Shown here: positions 27,221-45,498 of the stretch, piece after piece
Numbering within the stretch: position 1 is the stretch's first letter
Layout: every line of letters starts with the position of its first letter
Position numbers and translations under genes: made by a program
The notes under the pieces: generated by a model
What the model saw: the letters and a program-made list of their open reading frames with translations, nothing else
Databases searched by the model: none
What the model was told of the DNA's origin: nothing
Origin: Candidatus Hermodarchaeota archaeon
GTDB lineage: Archaea > Asgardarchaeota > Thorarchaeia > Thorarchaeales > Thorarchaeaceae
Assembly: GCA_048885865.1 (NCBI GenBank)
Contig: JBHLLF010000005.1
Coordinates: 67,547-131,546 of the forward strand
Direction of reading: 5' to 3'
DNA length: 64,000 nt

Positions 27221-27235
27221 TTTTGGGTTGGCTAG

Positions 27236-27640
27236 CTACTCATCTTTTGAACCTAGGAGCCACCTGATTCGCTCATGAGCCAGTATGTAGTGAATGATGG
27301 TAAGAACTCCAAATATTAGACTAGGATAGAGTAATCCCTCTACAAACATTGCTAGGAATGCAAAACCAAGAACCAGGAATTCAAGCAAGAGACGAACAGC
27401 TCCTGGAACAGGAACCGGAGCACCTCCAGATCGACTTGGATCGTTTGGAACTGCAAAGATGCCCCAGATCGCAGCTGCGGTTATTGGAAGTATCAGCATT
27501 AGCGCATAATTGAGTAGCCCGAAATCCTGGTTCAACCCCCAGTATCCAAAAGCAACAAGGGCCCAAAGCTCTAGAATGAAGCGCAATGCGTCATTGGCAC
27601 CAATACTCTTCTTCTCTCTGATATTACTCATAGCAATCAT
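27236..27640 (-). CDS. YrdB/DUF2568-family membrane protein
   Basis: LRFILEL, WGIFAVP.DPSR.G..PVPVPG.VRLLLE. Confidence 0.75.
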   Translation of the reverse strand: MIAMSNIREKKSIGANDALRFILELWALVAFGYWGLNQDFGLLNYALMLILPITAAAIWGIFAVPNDPSRSGGAPVPVPGAVRLLLEFLVLGFAFLAMFVEGLLYPSLIFGVLTIIHYILAHERIRWLLGSKDE

Positions 27641-27811
27641 CCCAAGACAGCCTGGAGATTAACTATAGTAAATATATTTACGGGTAGCAGAGCTCCCATG
27701 TCGGATGGGCGTCATGAGGGGGCGTGAAACGGGTTCTAAATACTTCCGAGGATTATTGATGGTTCTCGGCCAATACGTTTTTATCCAGACCCATGTGCAG
27801 ACTAAAGCGCG

Positions 27812-27920
27812 GGGCCCGTGGCATAGCCTGGTTATTGCGCCGCTCTGATAAGGCGGATGTCGGGTGTTCAAAAGCCACGGTACATTGCGACCGTGACTGA
27901 GTGTCACCCCGGGCCCACCA
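27812..27920 (+). tRNA. tRNA-Ile(GAT) with 31-nt intron in the T loop (59/60; 27873..27903)
   Basis: Acceptor GGGCCCG/CGGGCCC+ACCA; anticodon arm CCGCT-CTGATAA-GGCGG; removing the intron restores GGGTG-TTCAAAT-CACCC; BHB helix TTCA/TGAG with bulges AA|A and TG|T. Confidence 0.9.
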
Positions 27921-28012
27921 CTTTTTCTTCTTCCTTGATTGAATCTCCATCAAGCGAGTTAGAGCTATCCAAACCACAAATAAGGGATTAGCAACGAAGT
28001 TACAATTGATAG

Positions 28013-29554
28013 GTGGATGGAGGAATCATGGCGCGCTATACTGATTCTGACGACCCAGAAGTCTGGTATTCCAGAGCCAAGAAAGCGCTTTCAGCATACG
28101 ATATGGAGAGCGCAATCTATTGTCTTGAAAGAGGAATCGCACTAAAGGACATAGGTCCGGATATGCTGACTAAGATGGCTCATATGTTTATACCAACAGG
28201 AAGGGTAGCACAGGCTTTCAATACGATGAGGAAGGTAGAAGCACCTATTGATGAGATATTCAAGAAATGGTGTGATTTGGCGTATGATTTTGCACATGCT
28301 GGGCATGGAAAACTCGCTTTGAAGGCAATGAATGAAGCAGCTAAAAACCAACATGATTGCGCTAATGAATGGTATCACCTGTCGAGTATTCTAGCTGAGT
28401 CAGATAATCCTCATCCAGCTATTCATGCATTGAAGAATGCAATTTCCATTGAGAGTAATCATGCCGACGCATGGTATGCACTTGCCAAGCTACATGATCG
28501 AGTCCATAATAGAAGAGCATCAAAGAAGGCTCTTGAAACTGCTCTATCTCTAAATCCAGAACTTGCTGATGCTGTCCAAGATAAGAGCCAAAGCCAACCA
28601 GATCTTCAAGGTAGCCAGCCTAGGATTAGATCTCATGGTGTAGTTATTGAGATAGATATGAGGGAAACGCCGAATACTGGCGAAGTCCAGATTATGGTTC
28701 AACTGGATAGTGGCAAGGTGTTGACTCTAGTACATACCGAACAATCCATCGGAGATGTACCAAAGGAAGACAGCAAGGTCACAGTCTGGTATCTTGATGG
28801 TGTAATAACTGAGATTATTGAACACAAATCCTTCAAGGAGATGAAGGAAACCGGCTGGTCAGAGCCTATCTGGCTAAAGCCAATGGGAAAACTAGAGCCT
28901 GTTGATGTGTGTATTGGATGCATGGAAACCACTCCCTATCTTCTCAAACACTATGAATATACATGGAAAGCAGGCCGAACTGTGGCTGACTACTTGAAGA
29001 GATTCGTTGGGGGGATTCTTGAAACGGGATCAATGGTTAGAACTGAAGACAGGTCATATACGATAGTGAAAATGGTACCTAGTCTTTGTCAAGAATGTAT
29101 TACCAAATCGCGCAGGAAGTCCAAGATAAGAATGCTAATCTCATCAGTGTTGTTTCTTTCCTTACTAACCATTTTCATATTTCGAACGTTACTGCTCGGA
29201 ACTGTCTTCCTCTGGCCAGCTATTTCCGTGGAAATCATCCTTCTTGCTCATCTAGCATGGTTTCTTGGATTGGGTGTGCCATTTGCATTTCTCTATAGGT
29301 ATGCAATTGAGTATATCCGGCCATTTACGAGCTATATGGGATTCGAGGGCCCGAAAGGACGTAGACCTATAATGTATATGAAGAATGGAATCTATGCAGC
29401 CTTACTCCAAGAAGCCAAACCTGACTGGCACATATTCTACGATTCAAATTACAAGGGACTGCGAGAATATGGAGATGGATTGGCAGCAGGCTATATCCTC
29501 TTTGGACTAGTCCTACCCGCTATCCTTCTTGGAATTCTCCTATTTCTCCTATGA
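28013..29554 (+). CDS. TPR-repeat protein with CxxC pair and C-terminal TM helices
   Basis: TPR-like units (ADAWYALAKL, EWYHLSSIL); CIGC and CQEC; three hydrophobic segments. Confidence 0.75.
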   Translation: MDGGIMARYTDSDDPEVWYSRAKKALSAYDMESAIYCLERGIALKDIGPDMLTKMAHMFIPTGRVAQAFNTMRKVEAPIDEIFKKWCDLAYDFAHAGHGKLALKAMNEAAKNQHDCANEWYHLSSILAESDNPHPAIHALKNAISIESNHADAWYALAKLHDRVHNRRASKKALETALSLNPELADAVQDKSQSQPDLQGSQPRIRSHGVVIEIDMRETPNTGEVQIMVQLDSGKVLTLVHTEQSIGDVPKEDSKVTVWYLDGVITEIIEHKSFKEMKETGWSEPIWLKPMGKLEPVDVCIGCMETTPYLLKHYEYTWKAGRTVADYLKRFVGGILETGSMVRTEDRSYTIVKMVPSLCQECITKSRRKSKIRMLISSVLFLSLLTIFIFRTLLLGTVFLWPAISVEIILLAHLAWFLGLGVPFAFLYRYAIEYIRPFTSYMGFEGPKGRRPIMYMKNGIYAALLQEAKPDWHIFYDSNYKGLREYGDGLAAGYILFGLVLPAILLGILLFLL

Positions 29555-29626
29555 TGAGGCGGATGTCGGGTGTTCAAAAGCTACGGTACATCGCGACCGT
29601 GGCGGGAGATTACCCCGGGCCCACCA
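29553..29626 (+). repeat. Diverged direct repeat of the 3' part of tRNA-Ile (anticodon to CCA, intron included); att-like
   Basis: 64/74 identity to 27847..27920 by manual alignment. Confidence 0.92.
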
Positions 29627-29684
29627 TAGTTTTCCGGAATCAATGCGCTAAATCTTATTACCAGCTTGGGTTCGGGCTTGTTCC

Positions 29685-30230
29685 ATGAAAGCGCTAGTCG
29701 TTTACTTCAGTCAGACTGGGAACACCCAGATGATTGCGGAAGCTATTCATGAAACCATTGCTACTCGAAGAGAAGCCGATATCAGTACAGTTCGCAAAGT
29801 GAAACCTGATACACTTAACGACTACGACCTATTGGTTGTGGGTGCTCCATGTCATGATAGTGATTTAGCGCTCCCAGTAAAGGGATTCCTTGAGAAATTA
29901 CCTGAATCTCCTTCTTTCAAGCTGGCGGGATTCTTTACCCACGCAACCTACACGTCAGATGAGAATGGAAAAAGAGGCTTCTATAACGAATGGGCTGGAA
30001 GGTGCATTCCATCTTTTGAAAACGCATGCAAAAGCAAAGACATTGAATTCTTGGGATGTTTCAGCTGTCAGGGAAAGGCTAGCCCACCCATTGAGGCCTT
30101 CATCAGACAAGAGATAATCCATGACGATGATGAATGGAACAAATACCTGCCTGAGCTTCGAACCCATCCGAATTCGAGCGATATTGAGAATGCCAAGAAG
30201 TTCGCACAACGGATACTAAACAAACTATGA
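29685..30230 (+). CDS. Flavodoxin-family protein
   Basis: YFSQTGNT..IAEAI, VVGAP, FSCQG. Confidence 0.88.
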   Translation: MKALVVYFSQTGNTQMIAEAIHETIATRREADISTVRKVKPDTLNDYDLLVVGAPCHDSDLALPVKGFLEKLPESPSFKLAGFFTHATYTSDENGKRGFYNEWAGRCIPSFENACKSKDIEFLGCFSCQGKASPPIEAFIRQEIIHDDDEWNKYLPELRTHPNSSDIENAKKFAQRILNKL

Positions 30231-30394
30231 CTGAATCTCACCTCGGGCCACATCTACTTCTCAACATCTACTGGCCCTGAATCCGAAGAGGTCAACTGCC
30301 ACCAAATAGACCTGCACCTGATAAGGCGCAATGATACAGCGCTGACAGACATTCTTTAATTGCGAATCATTTCCCTCAGCCTCGGTGTCATCCC

Positions 30395-31216
30395 TTGACA
30401 GAGGACAGCATCGACATTCCAAGGAGCATCGAAGAGATAGACGATCCAATGGCACGGAAGAGGTTCGAGGAGCTAATCAAAGAGCCTTTTGTCCTGGGAC
30501 TCATGTTATGGGGGAGCCGAGCGACAGGCTTTGGCGCACCCAAGACAGATTGGGACGCATTAGTCTATGTCACAGATGACTATTACATCGGCCTAGAAGT
30601 GAAGAACACGATTTGGCTAGAATTTGACGAGTCTGTCGAGCCGAAGAGATTGGTCATTGACTTCTCTCCAATCTCAGATGCATGGTTTAGACAGCAGCTT
30701 GAGTCTCCTCTAGATATTGACCATTCTCCCTATGCCGAAGGGGTTGTGATCTATGACCCCTCAGGTAAGCTGGAGGAATGGAGACAGAAGCTAGCTAGGT
30801 ACCCTGAGGAGGAGCATGAAGAGCGATTGAAGAACAAGTTCGCCCTGGCAGTAGGGTCTTACGGTGCTGGCCGAATCGACAACGACAGAGGGTTCACACA
30901 TGACTCCAAGCTGAACCTGTATCGCTCAATTGTTGCTGCAGTCAACCTCTGGTTCACCATAAAGAAGTCGTGGACCCCTCCTTTGAAGTGGTGGACTCCA
31001 CATGCAAAACGACTCGGAATTACCGATGAAACCTACACGATATTCTGCGATGCAATAGACAATCCATCCGTTGAAACTGTAGGCGCTGTTCTGAAGCATC
31101 TTAGAGAGATGATCCTTGCAGATGGCTACGGGTTCCCAAATGACTTTGTTACTGCATTCCTAGAAACCATCCACGTGGATGGACGACCCGGACAGATTCG
31201 ACATAGCTACATGTGA
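30395..31216 (+). CDS. Pol-beta-like nucleotidyltransferase with helical C-terminal domain (DUF4037-like)
   Basis: WGSRATG....DWD motif; IYDPSG; PPLKW. Confidence 0.7.
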   Translation: MTEDSIDIPRSIEEIDDPMARKRFEELIKEPFVLGLMLWGSRATGFGAPKTDWDALVYVTDDYYIGLEVKNTIWLEFDESVEPKRLVIDFSPISDAWFRQQLESPLDIDHSPYAEGVVIYDPSGKLEEWRQKLARYPEEEHEERLKNKFALAVGSYGAGRIDNDRGFTHDSKLNLYRSIVAAVNLWFTIKKSWTPPLKWWTPHAKRLGITDETYTIFCDAIDNPSVETVGAVLKHLREMILADGYGFPNDFVTAFLETIHVDGRPGQIRHSYM

Positions 31217-31219
31217 GTT

Positions 31220-32443
31220 TCAGTGCTGGACCACTCTCTTACCTTCAAGAATCACCAGCTCAACTGAATCAGGATTCTGTAGACGTGCAAGGTCCTTCAA
31301 TGGGTCCAGTCCACTCTCCAACACAAGCAAATCTGCGTATTTGCCAACTTCAATGGTCCCAACATACTTGTCTATGCTAAGCGATTTAGCTGCATTCTTC
31401 GTTCCAGCAACAATCGCATCCATCTCGCTCATTCCACCAAGACGAACCATGAGTTCCATTTCTTCCATCGAGGATGGACCAAATGGAGTGTAAGGCATGC
31501 CAGAGTCTGTCCCCAGGACAATCTCAAGTCCAGCCTTTACGGAATTCCTGAACCCCTCCTCGATGAGTGGAAAGAGTTCCTTCTCCTTTCGAATCATGAA
31601 TTCAGGAAGCTGCCCCTCATCATGATGCTGGAGGGATTCGTAGTAGGTTGTGAGTGTTGGCATGAACTGAGTACCATGTTTTTTGGCCAGTTCAATCGTT
31701 TTCTCAGTCATCGGATGTCCATGAACAATGACATCTACTCCAGATAGTATCGTGTTGACGCCGCCGGGCTCACCATACGTGTGAGCATGGGTTTTCTTGC
31801 CCAACTTGTGCGCCTCTTCTGTTGCAGCCTGCAATTCATCCTGATTGAACTGTGTGGTAAAGCTGTCCTGTCCCTCTGCAGAGATTGCTCCTGTGGCTGC
31901 TAGTTTAATGAAATCGGCTCCGCGACCAAGCTCTTCGCGTGTTGCTCTTCTCACGTCGTCTGGACCATTGGCCTCATTACTCCCGCCATAATCCCCTCTT
32001 CCTGAGGAAATTGTAATCATTCTCCCACAGACTAATAATCGTGGTCCCTTCACATAGCCATTCTTTATTGCGTTCTTCACTGCAAACGGCACTTCACTTC
32101 TTCCTGCAGCATCTCCAGCCGTTGTGACCCCAGCATTCAGCAATTGCTCCGTGAATTTGGCTCCTCGAATAGCTAGGAACTCATCAGAGTGTTTCTTGAT
32201 TTCGGCGGGATCGGGATTGGCCCCATCATGGCATACATGAATGTGTGTATCAATAATCCCCGGCATAATGATACGGTCTGAAAAGTCTAATACTTCAATT
32301 CCAGAACCTGCCACATCAGTACCAATCTTTGCGATCTTGTTCTCTTGAATAACGATGGACACATCTTTTGCCGCAGTCCCATCACCAACAATCACTGTTC
32401 CTGCTTTCAGGAGCCTCTCTTTCATTGATTCATCTCTCCACAA
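31220..32443 (-). CDS. Metal-dependent amidohydrolase (Xaa-Pro dipeptidase-like)
   Basis: PGIIDTHIH, IKL.ATG, AH, LGTDSG, GKYADLLV. Confidence 0.9.
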   Translation of the reverse strand: MWRDESMKERLLKAGTVIVGDGTAAKDVSIVIQENKIAKIGTDVAGSGIEVLDFSDRIIMPGIIDTHIHVCHDGANPDPAEIKKHSDEFLAIRGAKFTEQLLNAGVTTAGDAAGRSEVPFAVKNAIKNGYVKGPRLLVCGRMITISSGRGDYGGSNEANGPDDVRRATREELGRGADFIKLAATGAISAEGQDSFTTQFNQDELQAATEEAHKLGKKTHAHTYGEPGGVNTILSGVDVIVHGHPMTEKTIELAKKHGTQFMPTLTTYYESLQHHDEGQLPEFMIRKEKELFPLIEEGFRNSVKAGLEIVLGTDSGMPYTPFGPSSMEEMELMVRLGGMSEMDAIVAGTKNAAKSLSIDKYVGTIEVGKYADLLVLESGLDPLKDLARLQNPDSVELVILEGKRVVQH

Positions 32444-32551
32444 TATTTCTCACAGTGAAAGGGTGTATTAGCACTTTCCAACTCTGCTGAATTTCCTATT
32501 GCTAAAGACTCATGTGCTTCGCCGCGAAGCTGAATTAGTTGAGGCTGAAGC

Positions 32552-33022
32552 ATGTTGGAAAAAGACCAGAGCATTGATGCATTATCAAAGCGTCTTGAGA
32601 ATGCTTTGGAGAAGAAAGCTGATGAACCCTTGGCAAACGGCACGCTTAATGAGCTATCCGACAGCAGCTACATGGACGCCCTGAGAAGGCCTTCCACTGC
32701 AATCATTGAGTTTTATACCACTACCTGCCCCTATTGCAGGCAGCTTGAACCAATCTTGAACGAGCTTGCCAGTGACTACAAGTCAAAGGTATATTTCGCT
32801 AAGATCAATGTCGACCAAGTCACAGAAGTATCTGAGACCCTTGATGTGGTTGGTGTGCCACTTGTGGTGGCATTCAAGAAAGGTCAGCCTGTGGCAAGAA
32901 TGGAGGGTTTCAGGGATAAAAGCGAATTAGACAGCTGGGTTGAAAGCATTCACAAGGGTTTCAGACCAATGAATCTTGAGTCCGGTCCAGTGACACGAAT
33001 CACTCTTGCTGACCTCTCGTGA
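32552..33022 (+). CDS. Thioredoxin-family protein
   Basis: FYTTTCPYC; FAKINVD; GVP. Confidence 0.88.
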   Translation: MLEKDQSIDALSKRLENALEKKADEPLANGTLNELSDSSYMDALRRPSTAIIEFYTTTCPYCRQLEPILNELASDYKSKVYFAKINVDQVTEVSETLDVVGVPLVVAFKKGQPVARMEGFRDKSELDSWVESIHKGFRPMNLESGPVTRITLADLS

Positions 33023-33026
33023 AACT

Positions 33027-34919
33027 CTAGAGGATCAATTTGAAGACATACTCATTCTCTTGGATATTGGGATAGCTCTCTAAAGTCATCGATAGACCAA
33101 ACTTCTGCAGAAACCTGATCATAGGCTGATTCTTTGGATGCACATAAGCAATGAAGGCCCTCACACCTTTGCTCTTTGCTATTCGCATTAAGTGAGAAAG
33201 CAGGAATGTTCCAATACCCCTCTTTTGGTAGTCATCTTGGATGAGAATGGCAAACTCTGCCTCATTCTTGTGCCAGTCAAGAAGATATCTTCCCGCACCA
33301 ATTATCTTCTCAGTGGTGCCTTCATCATCACAACAGATTGTTGCCACTATGCTGATGTCTCTTGACTGGTCTACATTGTAAAAGTCTTGCAATGTCTGCC
33401 TTTGGAGGCTCTCAAGATGTGTGAGGAATCTGAAGAAGATTGATTCTTCGCTCAGGTCATAGAACAGCTCCTTGATTCTATCCGTGTCATCAGGTCTGAT
33501 CAATCTGAACCGAACATCGATCTCGCCTTCAGGTCCCTCGAAGGTTTCGTGCGCCTCATATTCAAGGGGGAAGTAAGTGCCTTTTACCTGAAACGGGATT
33601 TGGTCTGAGAATACATAACGCATCTCTTTCGCCGCTTCAAGCAGGTCGTTCCGGAACTTGGGATGTGCGATGGCAATGAGCGATAACACACGCTCGCGGA
33701 TAGTCCTTCCTCTGAGAGTTGCCTGTCCATACTCAGTGATAACTACCTCGACGTCACCACGTGTTGTTACTACTCCTGCTCCCTCGCTTAGACGTGGCAC
33801 AATCCTTGAAACAGCGCCATCCAATGCAGTAGATGTCATGCATATGATGGCCTTTCCACCAGGTGACATGGATGCTCCTCTGATGAAGTCCACTTGCCCA
33901 CCGATTCCACTGTAAAACCTGTGACCTATAGAGTCAGAGCACACCTGCCCCGTTAAGTCCACTTCTAAAGCTGAGTTGATAGCCACCATCTTGTGATTTT
34001 GTGCAATAATGGATGGATTGTTGACATACGAAGTTTCTCGAAACTCAAACATCGGGTTATTGTCAACATAGTCATAGAGTTTCTGTGTGCCCATCGCAAA
34101 GCTTGTGGTGATTTTCCCCCTGTTGATACTCTTCCTTTTATTGGTCACAATTCCACTTTCAATCAAATCGATGATGGAATCTCCGAATCGCTCAGTATGA
34201 ATCCCCAGATCCTTCACATCGGATTCCAGCAAATGTTTGACGACAGATCTCTGAAGCCTTCCTATCCCCAGCTCCATAGTTGACTCATTCTCGATTAGCC
34301 TCGCCACATAGCTCCCTATGAGGTCACTCTTCTCATCTGTTTCCTCGGGCGTGTACTCCCTTAATGGTTCATTATGACATACAAGATGGTCAATGTCACG
34401 GATATGAAAGAACGAGTCGCCGTGGGTGACTGGCACATTCTCATTGACCTGAGCAATCACTAAGTCTGCATTTTCGGCGGCTGACCTTGTGATGTCGACC
34501 GATATACCTAGAGAGCAGTACCCATGTTCGTCAGGAGGGCTGACTTGAATCAGAGCTACATCCAATGGAATCCTCTTTGAGCTGAAGAACCTAGGAATGT
34601 CTGAGAGATGAGTGGGAGTGTAGTCCGCTCTGCCCTCGTATACTGCTGATCGTATATTGTCTGAAACAAAGAAGGTATTGTGCCTGAAATGCTCCTGAAA
34701 ATGCGGGTCTGCAGAGGGCGTGTCGCCTAGAGTAATCATATGGATTATCTCATTGTCTGCCATCTTGGGTGCGTTCTTTGCCAGCTCCTGCATTAGATGG
34801 AATGGTACCCCACAGCCAGTCCCAAGGAAGATACGCGTACCTCGCTTGATTTTCTTTATGGCTTGGTCCGCTGACAGCATCTTGTCCTTGTACTTGTCAG
34901 TCCATTCCTCACAGGCCAT
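33027..34919 (-). CDS. Acetyl-CoA hydrolase/transferase family fused to C-terminal GNAT (paralog 1)
   Basis: SGIGGQVDF, GAGVVTTR, HTE; GNAT YQKRGIG. Confidence 0.92.
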   Translation of the reverse strand: MACEEWTDKYKDKMLSADQAIKKIKRGTRIFLGTGCGVPFHLMQELAKNAPKMADNEIIHMITLGDTPSADPHFQEHFRHNTFFVSDNIRSAVYEGRADYTPTHLSDIPRFFSSKRIPLDVALIQVSPPDEHGYCSLGISVDITRSAAENADLVIAQVNENVPVTHGDSFFHIRDIDHLVCHNEPLREYTPEETDEKSDLIGSYVARLIENESTMELGIGRLQRSVVKHLLESDVKDLGIHTERFGDSIIDLIESGIVTNKRKSINRGKITTSFAMGTQKLYDYVDNNPMFEFRETSYVNNPSIIAQNHKMVAINSALEVDLTGQVCSDSIGHRFYSGIGGQVDFIRGASMSPGGKAIICMTSTALDGAVSRIVPRLSEGAGVVTTRGDVEVVITEYGQATLRGRTIRERVLSLIAIAHPKFRNDLLEAAKEMRYVFSDQIPFQVKGTYFPLEYEAHETFEGPEGEIDVRFRLIRPDDTDRIKELFYDLSEESIFFRFLTHLESLQRQTLQDFYNVDQSRDISIVATICCDDEGTTEKIIGAGRYLLDWHKNEAEFAILIQDDYQKRGIGTFLLSHLMRIAKSKGVRAFIAYVHPKNQPMIRFLQKFGLSMTLESYPNIQENEYVFKLIL

Positions 34920-34990
34920 GCATCTCGCCTCTAAATTGCTGGCTTCAAGGTCTTATGGGGCATATAGAGATTTCCAACAGGCTAAGGAGA

Positions 34991-36895
34991 TTAGAGTTTG
35001 AGCTTGAAGGTATACTCGTCGTCCTGAATGCTCAGATGGCTCTCAACTATCTTGCCTGTCTTATGCAGGAATCTAATCATAGGCTGATTCTTCGGGTGCA
35101 CAAAAGCAACAAAGGCCTCTACGCCTTTGCTCTTGGCAATCCTCATCAGATGAGTTAGCATGAAACTCCCAATTCCAATTCCTTGATACTCATCTCGAAC
35201 AAGAAGTGCAAACTCAGCCTCATTGGTGCTTCTATTGAGCAAATACCTCCCTGCTCCTATGATTTTCTCTGCTTCACCTTCAGTGTCCGGACTGATAACT
35301 GCCACAATTGAAACATCCCGATCGGCATCTACATCATAGAAGTCTTGCAGGGTGCGTCTGGGTAGACTCCTTAGAGGCGTCAAGAACCTGAAGTATATGC
35401 TCTCTTCTGAGAGGCCATAGAATAGATCTTTTATCCTGTCGGAATCGTCGGGCCGAGTGAGTCTAAAGCGGACATTGATAGGTCCTTCGACACCCTTGAA
35501 CGATTCTTGATACTCATATTCTGTTGGGAAGTAAGTTCCTTTCACTTGAAATGGTACCTGATCCTCGAACACATAGTGCATCTTCTTTGCCGCGTCAAGC
35601 AACTCATTCCTGAAGTCGGGATGTGCAACTGCGATCAGTGACAGCACTCGTTCTCTAATGGTCTTGCCGTGCAATATAGCTAGACCAAACTCAGTTATAA
35701 CGACATCAACATCTCCTCGCGTCGTGACCACGCCTGCTCCTTCACTCAGCCGGGGCACAATCCGTGAAACCTTGCCATCCATGGCTGTTGACTGCATACA
35801 GATAATAGCTTTCCCGCCTGGTGATCTCGACGCTCCACGGATGAAGTCTACTTGTCCACCAATCCCACTGTAGAACTTATGACCAATCGAGTCTGCGCAC
35901 ACCTGACCTGTCAGGTCAATCTCGAGAGCTGAATTGATAGCTATCATCTTTTTGTTCTGACCTATGACATATGGGTCATTGACGTAGGCTGTGTCATGAA
36001 AGTGGAACATTGGATTATTGTTAATGTAGTCGTAAAGTGCCTTTGTTCCCATGGCAAAACTTGCAATGACTTGCCCTTTGTGAATGCTCTTCTTCTTGTT
36101 CGTGACAACTCCACTCTCAATCAGAGGAATTAGACTGTCGCTAAACATCTCAGTGTGGATTCCTAGGTCTTTGACACCAGTTTCTTGCAGATTCTTACAG
36201 ACAGCTTGCGGCAGAGCACCTATTCCTAGCTCCAGAGTAGACTCATTCTCAATGAGTCGAGCTACATAGGAGCCAATCAGGTCTATGGTTTCATCACCTT
36301 CATGTGACTCGAACTCTCTCAGAGGCTCATTGAATGGAACCAGATAATCGATATCTCTGATATCAATGAATGAATCTCCATGGGTGACTGGCATTTTATC
36401 ATTGACTTGAGCTATGACAAGGTCTGCACTCTCTGCAGCGGATTTTGTGATGTCAACCGAGATGCCCAATGAGCTGAACCCATGCTCATCAGGTGGGCTG
36501 ATCTGAATCAATGCAACATCTAGAGGCATTCTCTTGGTCCGAAAGAGACGAGGAATATCAGAGAGCATGATTGGGGAGTAGTCAGCTCGGCCCTCTGAAA
36601 CGGCCTCACGGATGTTCTCTGATACGAAGAAGGTGTTATGCCTGAAATGTGCCTGAAACTTCGGGTCTGCAGAGGGCGTGTCCCCTAGAGTCAACAGATG
36701 GACTATCTCATTGTCTGACATCTGGTTAGCATGAGTTGCTATCTCCTGCACCAGATGGTATGGTACACCACATCCTGTTCCTAGGAAAATGCGAGTCCCT
36801 CTCTTGATCTTCTTGATGGCGTCCCTGGATGAAAGTATCTTCTTCCTGTACTTCTCGTCCCATCTGGCTCCAGACATTGTAATCCCTCTTTTCAA
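34991..36895 (-). CDS. Acetyl-CoA hydrolase/transferase family fused to C-terminal GNAT (paralog 2; start probably ATG at 36877)
   Basis: LGIGALP, HTEMFSD, SGIGGQVDF; GNAT YQGIGIG. Confidence 0.92.
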   Translation of the reverse strand: MKRGITMSGARWDEKYRKKILSSRDAIKKIKRGTRIFLGTGCGVPYHLVQEIATHANQMSDNEIVHLLTLGDTPSADPKFQAHFRHNTFFVSENIREAVSEGRADYSPIMLSDIPRLFRTKRMPLDVALIQISPPDEHGFSSLGISVDITKSAAESADLVIAQVNDKMPVTHGDSFIDIRDIDYLVPFNEPLREFESHEGDETIDLIGSYVARLIENESTLELGIGALPQAVCKNLQETGVKDLGIHTEMFSDSLIPLIESGVVTNKKKSIHKGQVIASFAMGTKALYDYINNNPMFHFHDTAYVNDPYVIGQNKKMIAINSALEIDLTGQVCADSIGHKFYSGIGGQVDFIRGASRSPGGKAIICMQSTAMDGKVSRIVPRLSEGAGVVTTRGDVDVVITEFGLAILHGKTIRERVLSLIAVAHPDFRNELLDAAKKMHYVFEDQVPFQVKGTYFPTEYEYQESFKGVEGPINVRFRLTRPDDSDRIKDLFYGLSEESIYFRFLTPLRSLPRRTLQDFYDVDADRDVSIVAVISPDTEGEAEKIIGAGRYLLNRSTNEAEFALLVRDEYQGIGIGSFMLTHLMRIAKSKGVEAFVAFVHPKNQPMIRFLHKTGKIVESHLSIQDDEYTFKLKL

Positions 36896-37021
36896 CGAGG
36901 CGATGCCGATTATGATTGCATATAGGCGTTTCCAAATACCACATCAACAACCTATTGCCATGTAAGAACCCTTATCAGTTAGTAACCTCGCGCGACGGCA
37001 CAAGACTCGACAATTATTCAG

Positions 37022-38311
37022 GTGAATTCTCTGATGTCTCAAGAAGAGGTTGGAAACAGGAATCTGGTGATTCTTGGTGCAATCATTGTTCAATTATGTC
37101 TAGGTTCAATCTACGCCTGGTCTTTCTTCCAAACAGCACTTAGAGGCGGTGCATATACGTGGTCTGCATTCTTTACCCAGCTACCATTTGCAGCCGGACT
37201 TGCTTCTTTTGCTTTATTCATGATATTTGCGGGAAGATGGCAGGATAGGATTGGTCCACGAAAGGTCGCCACTGTCGGCGGTGTGCTTCTAGGTGCAGGC
37301 TATATTCTGGCTTTCATGGTTGATATAGTAGCAGCTGGTAACGAGATGATTGGAACTCTCTGGCTCATTATCACCTACGGAATCATTGGTGGGGCTGGAA
37401 TTGGTTTTGCTTATGTCTGTCCTATTGCAGCACTTGTAAAGTGGTTCCCAGACAAGAAGGGCACAATCACCGGTATTGCGGTTGCTGGCTTTGGAGGCGG
37501 CGCACTTGTTTTTGGTTACGTTGAAGAGTTCTTGCTTGGTCTGTTCAATGTTCCAACAACTCAACAGGTAGGTTCCCCCTTCCTGATTCTAGGTGTGACC
37601 TATCTTGTTCTGGTGGTTCTTGGTGCTCAGGTCCTTACGAATCCTCCAGAAGGCTGGCTTCCTGCTGGTTATACGCCCCCGGCAACTACCGCTGATGGAA
37701 AGGGTCTAGACATCCTGCCAGGTGAGATGATTAGAACAGCAAGCTTCTGGCTATTATGGCTCATGTTTGTATTTGCAGCCACTGCCGGTCTCATGACACT
37801 CGGAAATGTGAAGAGTGCAGCTTTAGAGGTTGATCCGGTGGGAGGTGCAACATTCGCAGCCGTAATTGTTGGTGTCATGAGTCTACTGAACGCAGCAGGC
37901 AGAATCGTCTGGGGTGCAGTTTCAGACAAACTTGGGCGCGCTAATACCATGGCTACAATGTTCCTAGTTCTAGCCATTGGTATGTTTACATTTGCATACA
38001 TCACAACCTTGGCTGTTGACTGGGTTGCAGTCATGCTCATTGCATCTCTTGTAGGCTTTTGCTTCGGTGGTAACTTCGCACTGTTTCCATCAGCGACTGC
38101 TGACTTCTGGGGCTCAAAGAATGTTGGCAAGAACTATGGTGTGATGTTCACTGCCTACGGTATTGCAGGCATAACCGGCGCTTTCGTCGCTGGTCCAATC
38201 GTTGATGCGACTGGATCCTATTTCATGGCCTTTGTCGTCACTGGCATACTCGCAATCATTGCTGTGATTTTCACAATGGGTCTGAAGTTCATGCGCAAGC
38301 CATCTCAATAA
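37022..38311 (+). CDS. OFA (oxalate:formate antiporter)-family MFS transporter
   Basis: LGSIYAWS, GRWQDRIGP, KWFPDKKG, GRIVWG.VSDKLGR. Confidence 0.92.
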   Translation: MNSLMSQEEVGNRNLVILGAIIVQLCLGSIYAWSFFQTALRGGAYTWSAFFTQLPFAAGLASFALFMIFAGRWQDRIGPRKVATVGGVLLGAGYILAFMVDIVAAGNEMIGTLWLIITYGIIGGAGIGFAYVCPIAALVKWFPDKKGTITGIAVAGFGGGALVFGYVEEFLLGLFNVPTTQQVGSPFLILGVTYLVLVVLGAQVLTNPPEGWLPAGYTPPATTADGKGLDILPGEMIRTASFWLLWLMFVFAATAGLMTLGNVKSAALEVDPVGGATFAAVIVGVMSLLNAAGRIVWGAVSDKLGRANTMATMFLVLAIGMFTFAYITTLAVDWVAVMLIASLVGFCFGGNFALFPSATADFWGSKNVGKNYGVMFTAYGIAGITGAFVAGPIVDATGSYFMAFVVTGILAIIAVIFTMGLKFMRKPSQ

Positions 38312-38328
38312 CACTAACCATACGAATT

Positions 38329-38372
38329 GAGGTCAAGGACATACGTCTTTGACCTCTCTCAGTTTCTTTTTC
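38329..38372 (+). terminator. 12-bp hairpin plus T-rich tract
   Basis: GAGGTCAAGGAC-ATAC-GTCTTTGACCTC then TTTCTTTTT. Confidence 0.6.
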
Positions 38373-38508
38373 CTCAACAGTCTCACGCTTTATTTTCGTG
38401 ATTCGACATTCCGCCAATATCTCTCAAATACGCAACTATTGGCAAATCTTCTTAAGGGTGTGACCTCGCGCGGACAACCAAAGCAACATTGCTTATGGTG
38501 ATAATTCC

Positions 38509-40500
38509 ATGGCTGAAGAGAAGAAGATCACTGTCACGAGCCACGAGGAGCGGCGATTCCCGCCTCCAGAAAGCTTCGTCGAGAAGGCCTATATCAAGAG
38601 CCACGAGGAGCGGATGAAGCTCTGGAAGGAGTCCATCAAGAATCCCGATGAGTTCTGGCTTAAGATTACGAAAGATGAAATCTACTGGAAGAAGGAGCCT
38701 AGCAAGGGATTCGAATGGACGGACGTTGACGACATTCGATTCACATGGTTCGAAGACGGCGTCACAAACATGGCCTACAATTGTCTGGACAAGCATGTAG
38801 AACGGCAGAATGGTGACCAGGTTGCTCTCATCTGGCAGGGTGACCCACTAGATGAGTCCAAAACCTACACCTACAAGGAGCTTCTTAGCGAAGTCAACAA
38901 GGCAGCCAACGTGCTGAAGAACCTCGGTCTGAAGAAAGGCGACACCGTAACTATCTACATGCCAATGATTCCGGAGTTGGCCATCATCATGCTGGCCAGT
39001 GCAAGGATAGGCGCTGTTCACAGCATTGTCTTCGGTGGTTTCACTGCTGACTCATTGAAAGACAGGATTGAGGACTGCCAGAGCAAGCTCCTCATCACAG
39101 CTGATGCTTACTACAGAAATGGCAAGATAGTCCCACAGAAGAAGAATGCCGACAAGGCACTCGAGGACATTTCAATTGTCGAGAAAGTACTCGTTGTGCA
39201 GAGGATGGGAGTTGAGGATACTCCTTGGGATGATTCCAGAGACGTCTGGTACCATGAGGAGTACGCAAAGGTCGATGACAAATGTGAGCCTGAGTGGCTG
39301 AACGCTGAAGACCCGTTATTCATTCTCTACACCTCAGGATCAACTGGCAAGCCAAAGGGCGTTTTGCACACTGTTGGTGGGTACATGACCTATACGACCT
39401 ACACCTTCAAGACAATCTTCGACTGGCACCCCGGCGATGTCTACTGGTGTACTGCTGACATTGGCTGGATCACCGGTCACTCCTACATTGTGTATGGTCC
39501 ACTCTCAGCAGGTGCTACAAGCATGATGTTCGAAGGCACTCCTACGTACCCAGACAACGACCGCTTCTGGCTGGAGGTCGAGCGCTGGAAAGTCAATCAG
39601 TTCTACACTGCTCCCACCGCCATCAGGGCCCTGATGAGGTTTGGTGAGGACCCAGTGAAGAAGCATGACCTGAGTTCGCTCAACCTGCTCGGAACGGTGG
39701 GTGAACCGATCAACCCTGAGGCCTGGATGTGGTACTATGAACAGATTGGCAAGGAGAAGTGCCCAATTGTCGATACCTACTGGCAGACTGAAACCGGCGG
39801 TGTGATATTCACTCCCCTGCCTGGCGCGACTGCTACTATCCCTGGTAGCACAACTCAACCATTCTTCGGTGTGAAACCAGTAATAGTTGATGAGGGTGGG
39901 CAACCGGTTAACGCCAACGAGGGTGGTTACATCTGTATCCGTGAGCCATGGCCTGGTCTGATGAGGACAGTCTACGGAGACCATGAGAGGTTCAAGAACA
40001 CCTACTGGGTGCAGTACAAGGACCCCGACACAGGTCGCCCAATGTACATGACCGGCGACGGTGGCCGCTTCAATGAGGATGGCTACTACTTTGTCATGGG
40101 TCGAATCGACGACGTGCTCAAGGTGTCTGGTCATAGACTTGGTACTGCCGAGATTGAGAGCGCTCTTGTCAAGCATCCTGCAGTCGCAGAGTGCGCTGTA
40201 GTTGGATTCCCGCATGAGATCAAAGGCGAGAGCATCTATGTCTTCGCCACCCTGAAAGTTGGAATTGAGAAGACTGATGCCTTGAAGAAAGAGCTCAGGA
40301 ACCATGTGCGCTCAGAGATTGGTCCAATCGCAACTCCTGAGAAAATCCAGTTCGCTGATGCACTACCAAAGACTCGTTCCGGCAAGATCATGCGCCGGAT
40401 TCTCAAGAGGATTGCAGCAGGTCAGATTGACGACATCGGTGATACCACCACACTGGCAGACCCGACAGTCGTTGAAACCCTAATCAAGGAACGACTGTAG
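38509..40500 (+). CDS. acs: AMP-forming acetyl-CoA synthetase
   Basis: YTSGSTGKPKG, WITGHSY, DTYWQTETGG, PKTRSGKIMRR. Confidence 0.97.
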   Translation: MAEEKKITVTSHEERRFPPPESFVEKAYIKSHEERMKLWKESIKNPDEFWLKITKDEIYWKKEPSKGFEWTDVDDIRFTWFEDGVTNMAYNCLDKHVERQNGDQVALIWQGDPLDESKTYTYKELLSEVNKAANVLKNLGLKKGDTVTIYMPMIPELAIIMLASARIGAVHSIVFGGFTADSLKDRIEDCQSKLLITADAYYRNGKIVPQKKNADKALEDISIVEKVLVVQRMGVEDTPWDDSRDVWYHEEYAKVDDKCEPEWLNAEDPLFILYTSGSTGKPKGVLHTVGGYMTYTTYTFKTIFDWHPGDVYWCTADIGWITGHSYIVYGPLSAGATSMMFEGTPTYPDNDRFWLEVERWKVNQFYTAPTAIRALMRFGEDPVKKHDLSSLNLLGTVGEPINPEAWMWYYEQIGKEKCPIVDTYWQTETGGVIFTPLPGATATIPGSTTQPFFGVKPVIVDEGGQPVNANEGGYICIREPWPGLMRTVYGDHERFKNTYWVQYKDPDTGRPMYMTGDGGRFNEDGYYFVMGRIDDVLKVSGHRLGTAEIESALVKHPAVAECAVVGFPHEIKGESIYVFATLKVGIEKTDALKKELRNHVRSEIGPIATPEKIQFADALPKTRSGKIMRRILKRIAAGQIDDIGDTTTLADPTVVETLIKERL

Positions 40501-40510
40501 TAATTCTGAA

Positions 40511-40545
40511 GAGAGCCCTCGCGAGGGCTCTCGGTTCTCTCTTTT
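40511..40545 (+). terminator. Perfect 22-bp palindrome plus T-rich tract after acs
   Basis: GAGAGCCCTCGCGAGGGCTCTC followed by TCTCTCTTTT. Confidence 0.65.
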
Positions 40546-40670
40546 GGTTCAAGCAATCACATTACTCTGTTCAATATACTATTGGGACTCCTACTCAAAG
40601 TATGTCAGTGGCTGATACAAGAATCTCAAACATGACTTTTCGCTATTGGGTATTCTTGAAAGCACCAATA

Positions 40671-40913
40671 CTAGGGGATATACGGCCATGGTGGTCTGCC
40701 TTTCAAAGCCCAGACAACGAAAATGAGAATCATGACTGAACAGATGAAGACATAGGCCATTATCCCCGGCAAAAATCTAAGTCCTAAGATTAGCCAACCA
40801 AGACAGGATAAAATCAATCCCACAATAAGGAAGACAAGTGCAAGAATCTTGTCAGAGCGCGTAGACATCGGGGGTTCAATCCCATTTCTGTCCATAAGTA
40901 ACTTGCCATTCAC
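40671..40913 (-). CDS. Small two-TM hypothetical protein
   Basis: 80-aa ORF with two hydrophobic helices. Confidence 0.55.
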   Translation of the reverse strand: MNGKLLMDRNGIEPPMSTRSDKILALVFLIVGLILSCLGWLILGLRFLPGIMAYVFICSVMILIFVVWALKGRPPWPYIP

Positions 40914-40932
40914 TGGGCAGGAGTCATTTCTT

Positions 40933-41094
40933 GAGAAGATCTAATTTGCTGATGCATTGCCAAAGACCTGTTCCGGCAAGATCATGCGCAGGGTTCTCAA
41001 GAGGATTGTAGCAGGAAAGATTGACGACATCGGTGACACCACTACGCTGGCAGACCCGACAGTCGTTAAAACACTCACCAAAGAGAGGCTTTAG
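40933..41094 (+). pseudogene. acs: Second, diverged copy of the last 54 codons of acs (in-frame TAA at 40942)
   Basis: Ungapped match to 40339..40500; [23 protein letters not shown]...[10 protein letters not shown]; own hairpin at 41106..41125. Confidence 0.93.
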
Positions 41095-41173
41095 ATTAAA
41101 GAAACGGACGGGCAATGACCCGTCCTCTGCCTCTTTGCCATTCCTGATTATGATGCTCAACATCTGGATAGAT

Positions 41174-41479
41174 TCAAATCTCATTAGACTCCTGAAATCG
41201 AGAATACTGCCACATCCAAATTAGAGCAATTACGAATGCAGCAAATAGGGTATATATCAGCATATCCTCTCGTGGAGCCAAGCTAGGTCCATATATGTCA
41301 TAGAAGCCCGATATGAGCCAACCCAGAGTTATTGCCTCATAGATTATCAAACTAATGTAATACGTGCCAAACAGCTGATTGCCAATATTCTGAATCCTTT
41401 GCGAACTGATTCCTCGCCGCCAGACTTCATCTATGGCAAGCAAGAGAAGCTGGACGGCGATTAGTGTCAGGGTTATCAA
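41174..41479 (-). CDS. Small three-TM hypothetical protein immediately downstream of the large exported protein
   Basis: 101-aa hydrophobic ORF starting 9 nt after the upstream stop. Confidence 0.65.
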   Translation of the reverse strand: MITLTLIAVQLLLLAIDEVWRRGISSQRIQNIGNQLFGTYYISLIIYEAITLGWLISGFYDIYGPSLAPREDMLIYTLFAAFVIALIWMWQYSRFQESNEI

Positions 41480-41488
41480 TTTTCACAC

Positions 41489-44400
41489 TCAACTAGATTC
41501 CAACTCAACTCCCAGCCTGTAAAACCTACCGAAGTAATTGAGACAGGCTAATAGTATTATTATCTTGACCACAATACTAACAACTGCGAATGCTGCAGTG
41601 TACCAGTCCTTAGGCCAGAGCCCACTTATCCCCTTGCCGCCGATATTATACCATTTCTTGAAGTGTTGATATATTTTCCAACCCCTTTGGAGTCCAGTCA
41701 GTATTGGACCAGTAAATAGACCAAGCATTAGGAAAAGAGTCGAACCCGCCGCTGACCATGGATGCATATAGCCATTCGATACCATGTAATCTAGCCAAGT
41801 GAAATAGCTTGCAACCAAGACTACCCATGCTGCCAACATGACTAACAGGATTAGCAGGTTTGCAGGGTTAACAACCACTGCAGAAACCATGTCAATAGCC
41901 CTTCCTGCCAAGCCTATCATGAAAGCAAGTGCAGCATGAACTGCAAATCTTGTTATGAATTCAAACATGTAGTCTACAAAACCCCGGGCGTCCTGGTCAA
42001 TCTGCTCGTCAGTCCGGGTGCTTTCTGGTACTGTCATGGCAGACAGAGAATGAACCCTAATCGTTTGTAGAAGGTCGACAGAAACATGTACATCACAACT
42101 CGTCTCCGTGTCTGGAGGTTCATCTGTAGCGATGTGAAGCCAAGGCCAGAAGTTTTCAAGAGTCCAGTATGGAACTATATATGCAAATGCTACATCGAAG
42201 AAATTCTGAACCCTGTTTTCTTCAACGGTTGCATCAGGAATTGAACCTGACCCATCTAGTGGAATGGGCTCTTCGGGATTTGGATCATCTGGGGCATGTT
42301 GCGAGAGGTCTGCTACCACATTGATGTCGTGGATACGCATATCCACCAATGTGTTACTTGCATAACGCTGCCCCTCGATGACAAGGGACTTCACCACCCG
42401 AGCGGCGTTATCTACCTCATTCAGCACGGGACTATAGGGACTGCCACTGCGACTAATGTGGATGCTCCCCTGACCAGTGGATTCCTCCCACCACATCTTA
42501 ATGGTCCCCAAATACGAACTTTCACCATACCATAGGTTTCTTGCATAATGTCCACCATTCTGAGGGTAGAAGTCGATATACACCCAACCATCCGTCCAAC
42601 TACTCCCCGAGTCGCCCCACCTGATAGTCATGATCTTACTACCGTAGTCATCAAGCATTGTGACTCTAGTGATTCCCATCTCAGATGGAGCACCATTAAT
42701 CAGCTCAGCAAGGACCGAGAACTCGCTCAACTGATAGAGTCTGAAAGGCCTGTCAAAATGTTGCACATATTGGGGTCCATGCCATCCTGAGCCCGAGTCG
42801 ATAGAGGTCCAGGTCATGTAGCTCTGGTCGGTAGGCACGTCCAGGACGCCGGATGGGGTTGAAATGTCACGACTAAATTCGTCCATGTCATTACAATTGT
42901 CATGGAACACGGTGAACTCAGAACCTGCATAGTTCAGCCTCACGTTATAGACTCGTTCATCATGCTCAGCCCAGTAGCCATATCGATAGCTCTGTACAGC
43001 GATATATTTGATGAGTCTAGTGGGGTTCATGATATGATGTGGAACAAGGGTGCTTTCTGAGTCCTCAGGGAAATTCGCAAGCAAACCGATTACTGGATTG
43101 TATCTCAATGTGACAATCCCATCAGTGTCACCATAGAAGTATGGTGAAGCATCAGACCGGTAACTCCCATCCTCAAAGAAGTAGTACGCATAGAATCTCA
43201 CTTTCTCCTCAGATCCCCACATATCGCGAATCTGTATACTTGCTACAATCTTCTTGTTCTCATCAAACAGACTCACAGCAAGTGTACCAAGACGGTTGGC
43301 ATAGCCTGAGTGAACCAATGACAGATTCGCAGAGAATGACCCGAAGTCATTCATCATGAAGTAAGAGGGGAGTGTACGTACAAAGGAGGGGCCATGCCAG
43401 CTATTGCCTGAGGGGATAGATTGTACCGTGATAAACTCCCCATTGGAGTGAATCTCTCCATATGACTCATACTCGGTGTTTAGGAGTATGATGTTGTCGA
43501 CACGACCGCTGCCTCTGAAGAGGATTGCATTGACGTCAATGATGTTGACGTTTGGTTCTCCATCGTGAAGGTCATCCTGCAAGTTTCTGGTGAACGTATG
43601 CCATCTTCCATCAGTTGTCCAGGTCCCCAGTCCATGGTGGACGTATCCAGTAGAAGTTTTGAGAAGATTATAGTTCAGATTTGTGTAGTAAATGTACCTA
43701 TGTCCAGCAGTCGTATCACAGGAAACATAGACAACGTATGATTCCGAGTACTTCATGCTCCATTGAATGGATTTGTGTTCAGCATCGTTCCAGTAGTTTG
43801 CACTAGAATAGGGGTACCTGTATCCAGTTCCAGTCCCTCCACCTACTAATCTGATTGCTCTTCCATCATTATCATATACGTTGTAAATGTATCCTGCAGG
43901 GCTATTGTCATAGACTCCCCAGAGTGCTGTATCGCCATCCTCAGCATTCTCCTTCATCGTTGACTGCATAGATGGCAGCTCAGCCCAGCTCGAGTCATAC
44001 TCGTAATCTGCCTTATTGGCTGGATCCGACCAGAGACCGCCAGTTCTGTATGGATTTCGTCCTACGACTGGCTCCTGCCAGACTCCGTCTACCTTCTCTT
44101 GTTGGACATACTGTCCTCCCGCGCTCATTTGATTCATAGAGATGGAATCAACCTCAGTCTTTCCATCAGCATCAAGTGTGGGTCCACTAGCTGTGACATT
44201 CACCACAATTCGCGTCCATACGCCTGGCACACCCTGATAGATGACCCAACCTGAGTAGGCGCCTCCTGTGAAGATATGCGACCCATATTCCCAATGGCCA
44301 CTAGTTGCCGCGGCTGCTTTGTAATAGAATGATGAGAAATCGATACCAACAGCATCAATATCTATTGGTGGCGGTTTTGGTGGTGGTCTCGGCGGCGGTT

Positions 44401-45358: not shown

Positions 45359-45498
45359 GCATCCTATCGAGGATGGTAATATTTGGATATGTATGCATAA
45401 AAACTCAACGACTTCTTGGCTCGGTCCTTTGCTGTGATTTGCTTGGGCACATCTTCGAAGTTATATAGTCAAAATGTTATAGAGAATAATGATAACTA

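Follow-up and report, generated by a model that had tools for sequence, protein, structure and literature searches.

Background

How do accessory genes come to stand, one by one, directly behind the conserved ends of housekeeping genes, when the enzymes expected for such an architecture are not found? The genomes of Asgard archaea are large and rich in genes, and much of their DNA was acquired horizontally, yet few recognised mobile elements explain how genes enter them. The question is raised here by two loci, a tRNA-Ile gene and the acetyl-CoA synthetase gene acs, on a stretch of 64,000 nucleotides (nt) of contig JBHLLF010000005.1 of a Candidatus Hermodarchaeota archaeon (Thorarchaeia); the whole stretch is called the window. 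A first-pass annotation, made from the letters of the window, had noticed that at both loci an intact gene is followed by cargo and by a diverged copy of its own 3' end. Both repeats are real. At tRNA-Ile the gene's 3' part from the anticodon loop on (27843-27923) recurs as a direct repeat (27843-27920 against 29549-29626, 86% identity over 78 nt), and at acs the final 166 nt of the gene do (40335-40500 against 40929-41094, 84% identity over 166 nt).

In our reading both loci are stacks of non-autonomous cassettes that grew as the 3' end of a gene was replaced again and again. An incoming segment would bring its own version of the target's 3' part at its start, together with a trailer or terminator of its own, and would bear one or a few accessory genes. 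The join would lie within the resident gene, upstream of its end; the gene would stay intact, and the old end would be pushed downstream, silenced and left to decay. Repeated rounds would place the newest cassette beside the gene. As a description (serial 3'-end replacement, non-autonomous cassettes, newest nearest the gene) this model is well supported; taken together with joining in trans and recombinational spread, both of which we infer, it is in our opinion probable, with real room for the alternatives weighed below.

The source genome of the window, G000, is a metagenome-assembled genome (MAG) of 3.58 Mb in 117 contigs, 87% complete and with 5.3% contamination. Its closest relative is G015 (96.4% identity over 10.3 kb aligned), and G047 is a genome from another genus, assembled as a single contig. 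Further relatives carry handles of the same kind; the second tRNA-Ile piece of G056 is a scaffold-gap duplicate and was left out of the comparison.

The tRNA-Ile locus

The locus consists of the following features:

27812..27923, plus strand: live tRNA-Ile(GAT) gene (ARAGORN on the spliced form)
27924..29548, plus strand: cassette 1, with its own tRNA trailer and one TPR gene (Pfam TPR, translation); not in G015
29549..29626, plus strand: displaced tRNA-Ile 3' half from the anticodon loop to CCA, with another intron allele (86% to the live copy; nhmmer E = 3e-24)
29627..30226, plus strand: cassette 2, with its own trailer and a flavodoxin-like gene, 29685-30230 (Pfam Flavodoxin_3/5/1)
30227..30249, plus strand: core of a decayed third tRNA-Ile 3' remnant, colinear with the tRNA 3' end of G015 (weak similarity over ~30200-30256)

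Unspliced, the live gene is missed by ARAGORN and Rfam because it carries a non-canonical T-loop intron of 31 nt (27873-27903); spliced in silico, it is called by ARAGORN as a 78-nt tRNA-Ile. Introns are present in many tRNA genes of G000. The gene of cassette 1 (28013/28028-29554) encodes a TPR protein of 508-513 amino acids, Cys-rich and with C-terminal membrane segments, and its stop codon falls within the next tRNA repeat; the flavodoxin-like gene of cassette 2 likewise terminates inside the third remnant. The TPR gene has only remote relatives in 86 genomes of the family and no match in a metagenome scan of other assemblies, and cassette 2 is present neither in G015 nor in any other relative compared. 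The first-pass annotation was therefore right about the TPR gene and the repeat behind it, but not about a single cassette, since two cassettes and a decayed third remnant are found.

The order is thus live tRNA, TPR cassette, 86% copy, flavodoxin cassette, third remnant of ~70% identity, and backbone. Decay rises with distance from the live gene, first to the 86% copy and then to the ~70% remnant, which is the gradient expected from successive arrivals, each replacing the end and driving the older ones outward. The third remnant, which is the oldest displaced end, has an nhmmer E value of 0.067, and none of 2000 shuffles reaches its local alignment score. The backbone resumes at ~30277, contiguous with it. 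At the junction of the DUF4037 gene and the backbone (31000-31200) no fourth remnant was detectable (p = 0.32).

The paired ends had been proposed to be two once-functional alleles, and indeed the 5' half of the tRNA joined to copy 2 and spliced in silico is still called as tRNA-Ile by ARAGORN. The related proposal, that the differences fall mostly at selectively tolerant positions, stands only in part here. Eight of the 11 differences between the tRNA copies are in the intron, but several differences strike its 3' 'CTGA' region, which is conserved across the family, and part of the divergence is therefore decay.

An empty site exists in G015, where tRNA-Ile is joined directly to DNA equivalent to the window from ~30277; the window has 2.3 kb extra, comprising the two cassettes. 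The comparison shows that an incoming insertion displaced the resident end. This direction follows from the colinearity of the third remnant with the backbone and not from an allele match, as the G015 gene is 100% identical to the live window copy over 109 nt and 86% identical to copy 2. The first-pass annotation had predicted that empty-site alleles would be nearer the downstream copy, and this turned out the other way round, also at acs, where the ends of relatives are 88-94% identical to the live end and 84-88% to the downstream copy. Elsewhere the position behind tRNA-Ile is variable: the amidohydrolase gene follows directly in G002 and G014, and other cargo is found in G008, G013 and G010.

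The T-loop intron itself is polymorphic. G000, G015, G008 and G013 have it, G002, G010 and G014 lack it, and in these seven genomes its presence tracks that of the DUF4037 gene behind tRNA-Ile. It also occurs in several other genera, with a conserved hairpin and the same 3' 'CTGA' region. On the 5' side a second indel adjoins the tRNA (window 27220-27757): G002 and G010 share with the window a DUF2568 gene (27236-27640, minus strand) that lies between a xylose-isomerase-like gene and tRNA-Ile; in G015 it is missing, and its flanks lie only 35 bp apart.

The acs locus

The features behind acs are of more mixed origin (ORF, open reading frame):

38509..40500, plus strand: acs, intact acetyl-CoA synthetase of 663 amino acids (Pfam ACAS_N, AMP-binding, AMP-binding_C)
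40501..40582, plus strand: DNA flanking the live acs end, including a GC hairpin of its own (40511-40532); common to G015 and the displaced copy of G014, exactly to 40582
40583..40677, plus strand: remnant of another gene, its last 18 codons (40583-40636) and flank; matches in G002, G004, G005, G007, G012 and G014
40671..40913, minus strand: small membrane ORF of 80 amino acids; homologue in G008, next to a TetR gene and the backbone that follows acs
40929..41094, plus strand: displaced acs 3' end with in-frame stop and an R to C change in PKTRSGK
41095..45447, minus strand: rest of the strain-specific islet behind acs, with a membrane ORF (41174-41479) and an ORF of 1289 amino acids (41489-45358)

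The two acs ends differ by 18 synonymous and 7 non-synonymous changes, with 0.70 synonymous substitutions per site (dS), a ratio of non-synonymous to synonymous rates (dN/dS) of 0.087 and a synonymous excess at p ~1e-6. At acs most of the differences do lie at tolerant positions. Because they are mostly synonymous, the pair reads as two once-working alleles and not as a local duplication, and the displaced end is followed by its own, different hairpin (41106-41125). One could imagine a tandem duplication of the gene end that diverged in place, given that the repeats are direct, co-oriented and closely spaced. Both copies would then have had to evolve for a long time as working genes to reach this dS with so strong a synonymous bias; moreover, the trailer or hairpin differs between copies, and the 96%-identical relative has an empty site at tRNA-Ile. 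We give this explanation virtually no credence.

Compared with G015, 563 nt behind acs are replaced by 4,865 nt (40583-45447), and homology restarts at 45448. The cargo between the ends, about 430 bp with a small transmembrane ORF, had been described correctly as far as it went, but it also holds the 18-codon remnant of another gene's end. This other gene is a 260-amino-acid ORF just downstream of acs in G002, whose reading frame has the same end.

A breakpoint had been predicted near 40339. In G000 it is weakly visible: over the final 188 nt of acs and the flank, divergence from G015 is 8% against a mean of 3.4%, which places this region in the top 3.5% of windows. The live end is 94% identical to G015 and 91% to G002. 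In G014 the breakpoint is clear, at the equivalent of ~40234. There the live end is recoded: identity to relatives drops from ~90% to 65-75%, and third-position identity from ~75% to 36%. The native-like, partial displaced copy of G014 (contig C190) begins exactly at this breakpoint, is 93% identical to G010, and keeps the flank of G000 and G015 up to 40582 before G015-like backbone genes follow. The cargo between the two ends of G014 amounts to at least 8 kb; a contig gap interrupts it, and an ArdC-like gene is among its contents. G052 behaves likewise, with a live end only 72-75% identical to everything sampled and two displaced copies at 80-82%. In our opinion these comparisons establish the direction of replacement at acs in G014 and speak for the same direction in G052.

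Across genomes the displaced acs copies measure 46, 80, 166, 174, ~267 and at least 790 nt, and at least four hairpin types accompany acs ends, irrespective of relatedness of the genomes. A separate observation concerns G003 (contig C6, 6288-6965 of its acs locus L013), where a truncated ORF of 225 amino acids is fused in frame to the displaced acs end. Its core resembles the PD-(D/E)xK-like NOV_C/DUF3883 domain (GYDI...EVKG), and an ABC transporter pair lies ahead of it in the cargo.

Recurrence in the genome and its relatives

The suggestion that this is a recurring route, used at tRNA and protein genes, is borne out by comparison of G000 with itself, in which the same layout appears at several further loci. 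The last 50 nt of tRNA-Tyr are repeated 3.1 kb downstream at 94% identity, with a two-gene cargo between (contig C23, 5332-8573). The end of an acyl-CoA dehydrogenase (ACAD) gene has six downstream copies, and at least four further loci have a gene-proximal repeat copy that closes a long ORF. In all, G000 has eight or more loci of this kind, and they contain dozens of intact cargo genes. The layout is recurrent and, judged from these alignments, strikes both tRNA and protein genes.

In relatives the tRNA-Tyr position has been used again. G015 carries at tRNA-Tyr (contig C26, 16832-18995) a fresh gain, an extra cassette of 2,053 nt with a single gene for a membrane protein of 620 amino acids. 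It sits between the tRNA and the displaced half, and the trailer and two-gene cassette of G000 come next. G002 has yet another, different cassette at this position. In G047 tRNA-Ile is followed after 0.86 kb by an identical 43-nt copy that begins at the anticodon.

These cases bear on the concern that an assembler may have joined two strains' versions of one locus in series. With a 117-contig, 5.3% contaminated MAG and with TPR and flavodoxin cassettes found in no other genome, the concern is legitimate. Nevertheless, the junctions have no common sequence that could link graph paths, the same layout occurs in independent assemblies including the single contig of G047, and the tRNA-Tyr arrangement of G000 is embedded in those of G015 and G002. 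An assembly artefact is therefore very improbable in our view.

Several repeats of a related kind should be mentioned in their own right. Further families of 45-250-nt direct repeats at kb spacing lie on contigs C13, C106, C42, C20, C50, C21, C1 and C26; they close no long ORF, and may be RNA-gene tails or other anchors. The cargo on C13 and C42 encodes related repeat proteins. On C14 three copies of ~90 nt (263-359, 1044-1131 and 2053-2149) contain the upstream region and first codons of ACAD, with small genes between them, so stacking may occur at a gene's 5' end too. The tRNA-Tyr gene of G015 has an intron-like insertion in the D-loop region, which that of G000 lacks.

The junctions and the joining step

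At the tRNA genes the junctions are precise. In three tRNA-Tyr cassettes and at tRNA-Ile of G000 and G047 the displaced half starts within a few nt 5' of the anticodon, and at both genes the duplicated part terminates at CCA. This precision argues for a site-directed step at tRNAs, which would be a cut or crossover 5' of the anticodon. At acs the lengths of the copies vary, which argues against a single site there. The tRNA repeats of G015 and G047 are identical copies of 43-45 nt; the window's own pairs, which are 84-86% identical, contain identical blocks of 20-26 nt.

A serious rival needs no dedicated enzyme at all. DNA of a related strain, or circles excised from other stacks via direct repeats, would pair with the gene end, and the far side would close either through illegitimate joining facilitated by homology or through a single crossover of the Campbell type, giving a long duplication of the gene end. 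Much is consistent with such purely recombinational capture: no recombinase was found in cassettes or genome, the targets are highly conserved sequences, the duplicated segment at acs is long and variable, and the identical copies of the recent tRNA events could provide homology. The acs islet of the window is, furthermore, built of pieces found behind acs in relatives (the gene-end remnant and the small membrane ORF), and there are precedents both for insertion with long target duplication (PMC2853133) and for sequential displacement at type VI secretion system (T6SS) and Rhs loci by homology-facilitated illegitimate recombination (HFIR; PMC5361080). Three observations are hard to accommodate. 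Illegitimate joining should not reach the precision seen at tRNA-Tyr and tRNA-Ile, where independent cassettes all join no more than a few nt from the anticodon and finish at CCA. The incoming acs end of G014 shares only ~70% identity with the resident end, third positions being saturated, and pairing inside it is implausible. Finally, the copies in the window are different alleles and not a duplication of the recipient's own target. We consider this route unlikely as the whole explanation, but it must be taken seriously.

The search for an enzyme

The absence of a recognisable integrase, first noted for the window, extends to the whole 87%-complete assembly. A six-frame search of all of G000 gave no match to the tyrosine recombinase (PF00589), serine recombinase (PF00239), Cas1 (PF01867) or LAGLIDADG_3 (PF14528) families, and sub-threshold matches only to the TnpB zinc-ribbon family (PF07282); DDE transposases were not searched. 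PF00589 was not found by the same means in G014, G003 and G015, themselves incomplete MAGs, and is represented by one gene each in G004 and G052. Even a gene of the Xer type was not found in G000, G014, G003 and G015, although all 14 of 14 control genomes matched; this should be read as 'not found' and not as 'absent'.

The cargo gives the same picture. The inserts at acs and tRNA-Ile of G003, G014 and G015 were run through Pfam and PHROGs, and the cargo ORFs of G008, G010, G013 and G052 were listed and read by eye. Pfam found no integrase among the cargo ORFs of the window loci or in the inserts of G003, G014 and G015, which contain, besides genes of ordinary or unknown kinds, a single ArdC-like gene and a single truncated NOV_C-like ORF. 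When the ORFs of 18 repeat-bounded loci were compared all against all, no driver gene common to their cargo emerged, and the only matches were flavodoxin, TPR and repeat proteins. The att-like strings of tRNA-Ile and tRNA-Tyr gave 0 matches in IMG/VR.

These results bear on the possibility of ordinary tyrosine-integrase elements (a virus, a plasmid, an integrative and conjugative element) with a duplicated attachment (att) site, from which the integrase and most genes were later deleted. Indeed the layout is that of a textbook att duplication, running from the anticodon loop to the 3' end with the gene restored by the element, and archaeal elements with tRNA or protein-gene targets are known to show it, also in tandem arrays (PMC6563490; bioRxiv 10.1101/2020.12.28.424599). 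The acs cargo of G014 resembles that of a mobile genetic element in its ArdC-like gene, the contig gap there could hide an integrase, and PF00589 genes do occur in G004 and G052. On the other hand, not a fragment of an integrase was found in the four genomes named, despite the number of loci in G000. The cassettes are mostly single genes, including the fresh gain of G015, the repeats are long diverged alleles instead of short identical cores, and the att-like strings are without a viral match in IMG/VR. The architecture fits classical decayed elements; the total lack of integrase traces does not, and we regard this origin as quite improbable.

Weighing the hypothesis

For serial 3'-end replacement we favour a site-directed step acting in trans, on three grounds: the precision of the tRNA junctions, the G014 incoming acs end that at 70% identity would be unable to pair, and the lack of integrase remnants among so many cassettes. 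The joining activity would not be encoded by the cassettes; it may come from an unbinned element or be an unrecognised host enzyme. Once built, stacks would spread between strains by ordinary homologous recombination, the gene body serving as left arm and the displaced end or the backbone as right arm.

Several points speak against this view, and we do not wish to play them down. A candidate enzyme was found at neither locus in any genome examined. G000 is incomplete and in many contigs, and such an enzyme could sit in unassembled or unbinned DNA. The starts of the acs copies, between 46 and 790 nt before the stop codon, define no single target site. In G015 and G047 the incoming and displaced tRNA halves can be identical, which means that the target of a nuclease would be rebuilt after insertion. 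In the window the displaced acs copy lies inside a 4.9-kb patchwork segment and not at its edge. The first-pass claim that the resident end was displaced is supported in part. At tRNA-Ile it is upheld by the empty site and the colinear third remnant; at acs of G000 itself it may hold, but the live end there is the one that looks native from its similarity to relatives.

A bolder proposal can be offered, tentatively and with more doubt than conviction. Thorarchaeota may own an undescribed system of site-directed gene capture. It would cut into conserved gene ends and place there single-gene cassettes, devoid of any enzyme but equipped with a substitute end, and so build integron-like stacks without known integrase, transposase, Cas1 or homing-endonuclease families in the host genome. 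Its targets would be tRNA anticodon-loop DNA, rRNA, and the tails of ribosomal-protein and metabolic genes. Polymorphic tRNA introns (in the T loop of tRNA-Ile and the D loop of tRNA-Tyr of G015) would then travel with the replacement or protect against it.

Comparison with known systems

Closest in logic, by analogy, are the WHO elements at FBA1 of Torulaspora and Lachancea yeasts, which form clusters that contain endonuclease genes as well as pseudogenes (Coughlan et al. 2020, PMC7282813). There, as here, an intact host gene receives a new 3' end with every arrival, its former end is shifted downstream as a fragment, the newest lying beside the gene, and the displaced fragment can act as a homology arm. 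The endonuclease gene that defines WHO elements is missing here. No nuclease domain was seen in the cargo searched apart from the truncated NOV_C/PD-(D/E)xK-like ORF of G003, PF14528 was not found in G000, and the cargo consists of ordinary accessory genes. Since new and old tRNA halves can be identical, no resistant allele is evident either. The sharp 3' breakpoint typical of WHO elements is clear in G014, suggested in G052 and weak in G000 against G015. A common fragment start, the other such feature, is seen to within a few nt of the anticodon at tRNA-Ile and tRNA-Tyr and is replaced by the scattered starts at acs.

Archaeal integrative elements and tycheposon islands share with our loci a direct repeat that reaches from the anticodon loop as far as the 3' end of the tRNA, a restored gene and the outward push of older elements by newer ones (Krupovic et al. 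2019, PMC6563490; bioRxiv 10.1101/2020.12.28.424599), and protein-gene 3' ends are among the targets of the former too (PMC6563490). A direct-repeat-flanked insert with an empty site in a relative, as seen for tRNA-Ile against G015 and for tRNA-Tyr, is what tyrosine-integrase elements leave. The differences are the missing integrase or fragment of it in cassettes and genome, the one-gene cassettes, and repeats of diverged alleles that reach 166-790 nt. The literature on Asgard mobile elements knows tRNA-integrating viruses and aloposons, which have integrases; such stacks are not described in PMC8813620.

Insertion with long target duplication likewise yields an integrase-free insert between long direct repeats that match a relative's single-copy site, and in many cases a stop codon falls within the repeat (as cited in Furuta et al. 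2010, PMC2853133). There the repeat duplicates the recipient's own target; here the repeats are different alleles that diverged under selection, and events stack into arrays. As an explanation of the window copies, simple target duplication was considered and is ruled out by dS 0.70 and dN/dS 0.087, the differing trailers and hairpins, and the other intron allele.

C-terminal displacement at rhs, cdiA and T6SS effector loci proceeds as well by sequential replacement of 3' ends behind a conserved anchor without an integrase, and HFIR has been proposed for it (Kirchberger et al. 2017, PMC5361080, with the Rhs studies cited there). The replaced ends there encode different toxins and selection acts on the new tip (PMC5361080), whereas here the product is unchanged and the novelty is the trailing cargo. 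Integrons, which have been reported in Archaea as well, form arrays too; their cassettes are promoter-poor, most hold a single gene, and the latest addition lies closest to the anchor (Ghaly et al. 2022, PMC9668308). Unlike them, our stacks gave no match to IntI or PF00589, their repeats are gene ends instead of attC hairpins, and the anchor is a housekeeping gene. Casposons differ still more: PF01867 was not found in G000 and the duplications measure 78-166 nt instead of ~14-15 bp, while terminal inverted repeats were not specifically searched.

Implications

Whatever the joining step, these loci let us see, down to the base pair and against the empty site of a sister genome, accessory genes being added singly behind conserved gene ends. 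If the process is driven by an enzyme, a targeting activity of an unknown kind would be at work. If it is purely recombinational, conserved gene ends would be universal landing pads for gene flow between diverged strains. In either case displaced ends are dated fossils, from which the order and source of acquisitions can be reconstructed.

Other observations in the window

Between the two loci, at 33027-36895, lie two tandem paralogues (~70% nt identity) that each combine an acetyl-CoA hydrolase/transferase with a C-terminal GNAT domain. The pair is divergent from a transporter gene of the major facilitator superfamily (MFS) and acs.

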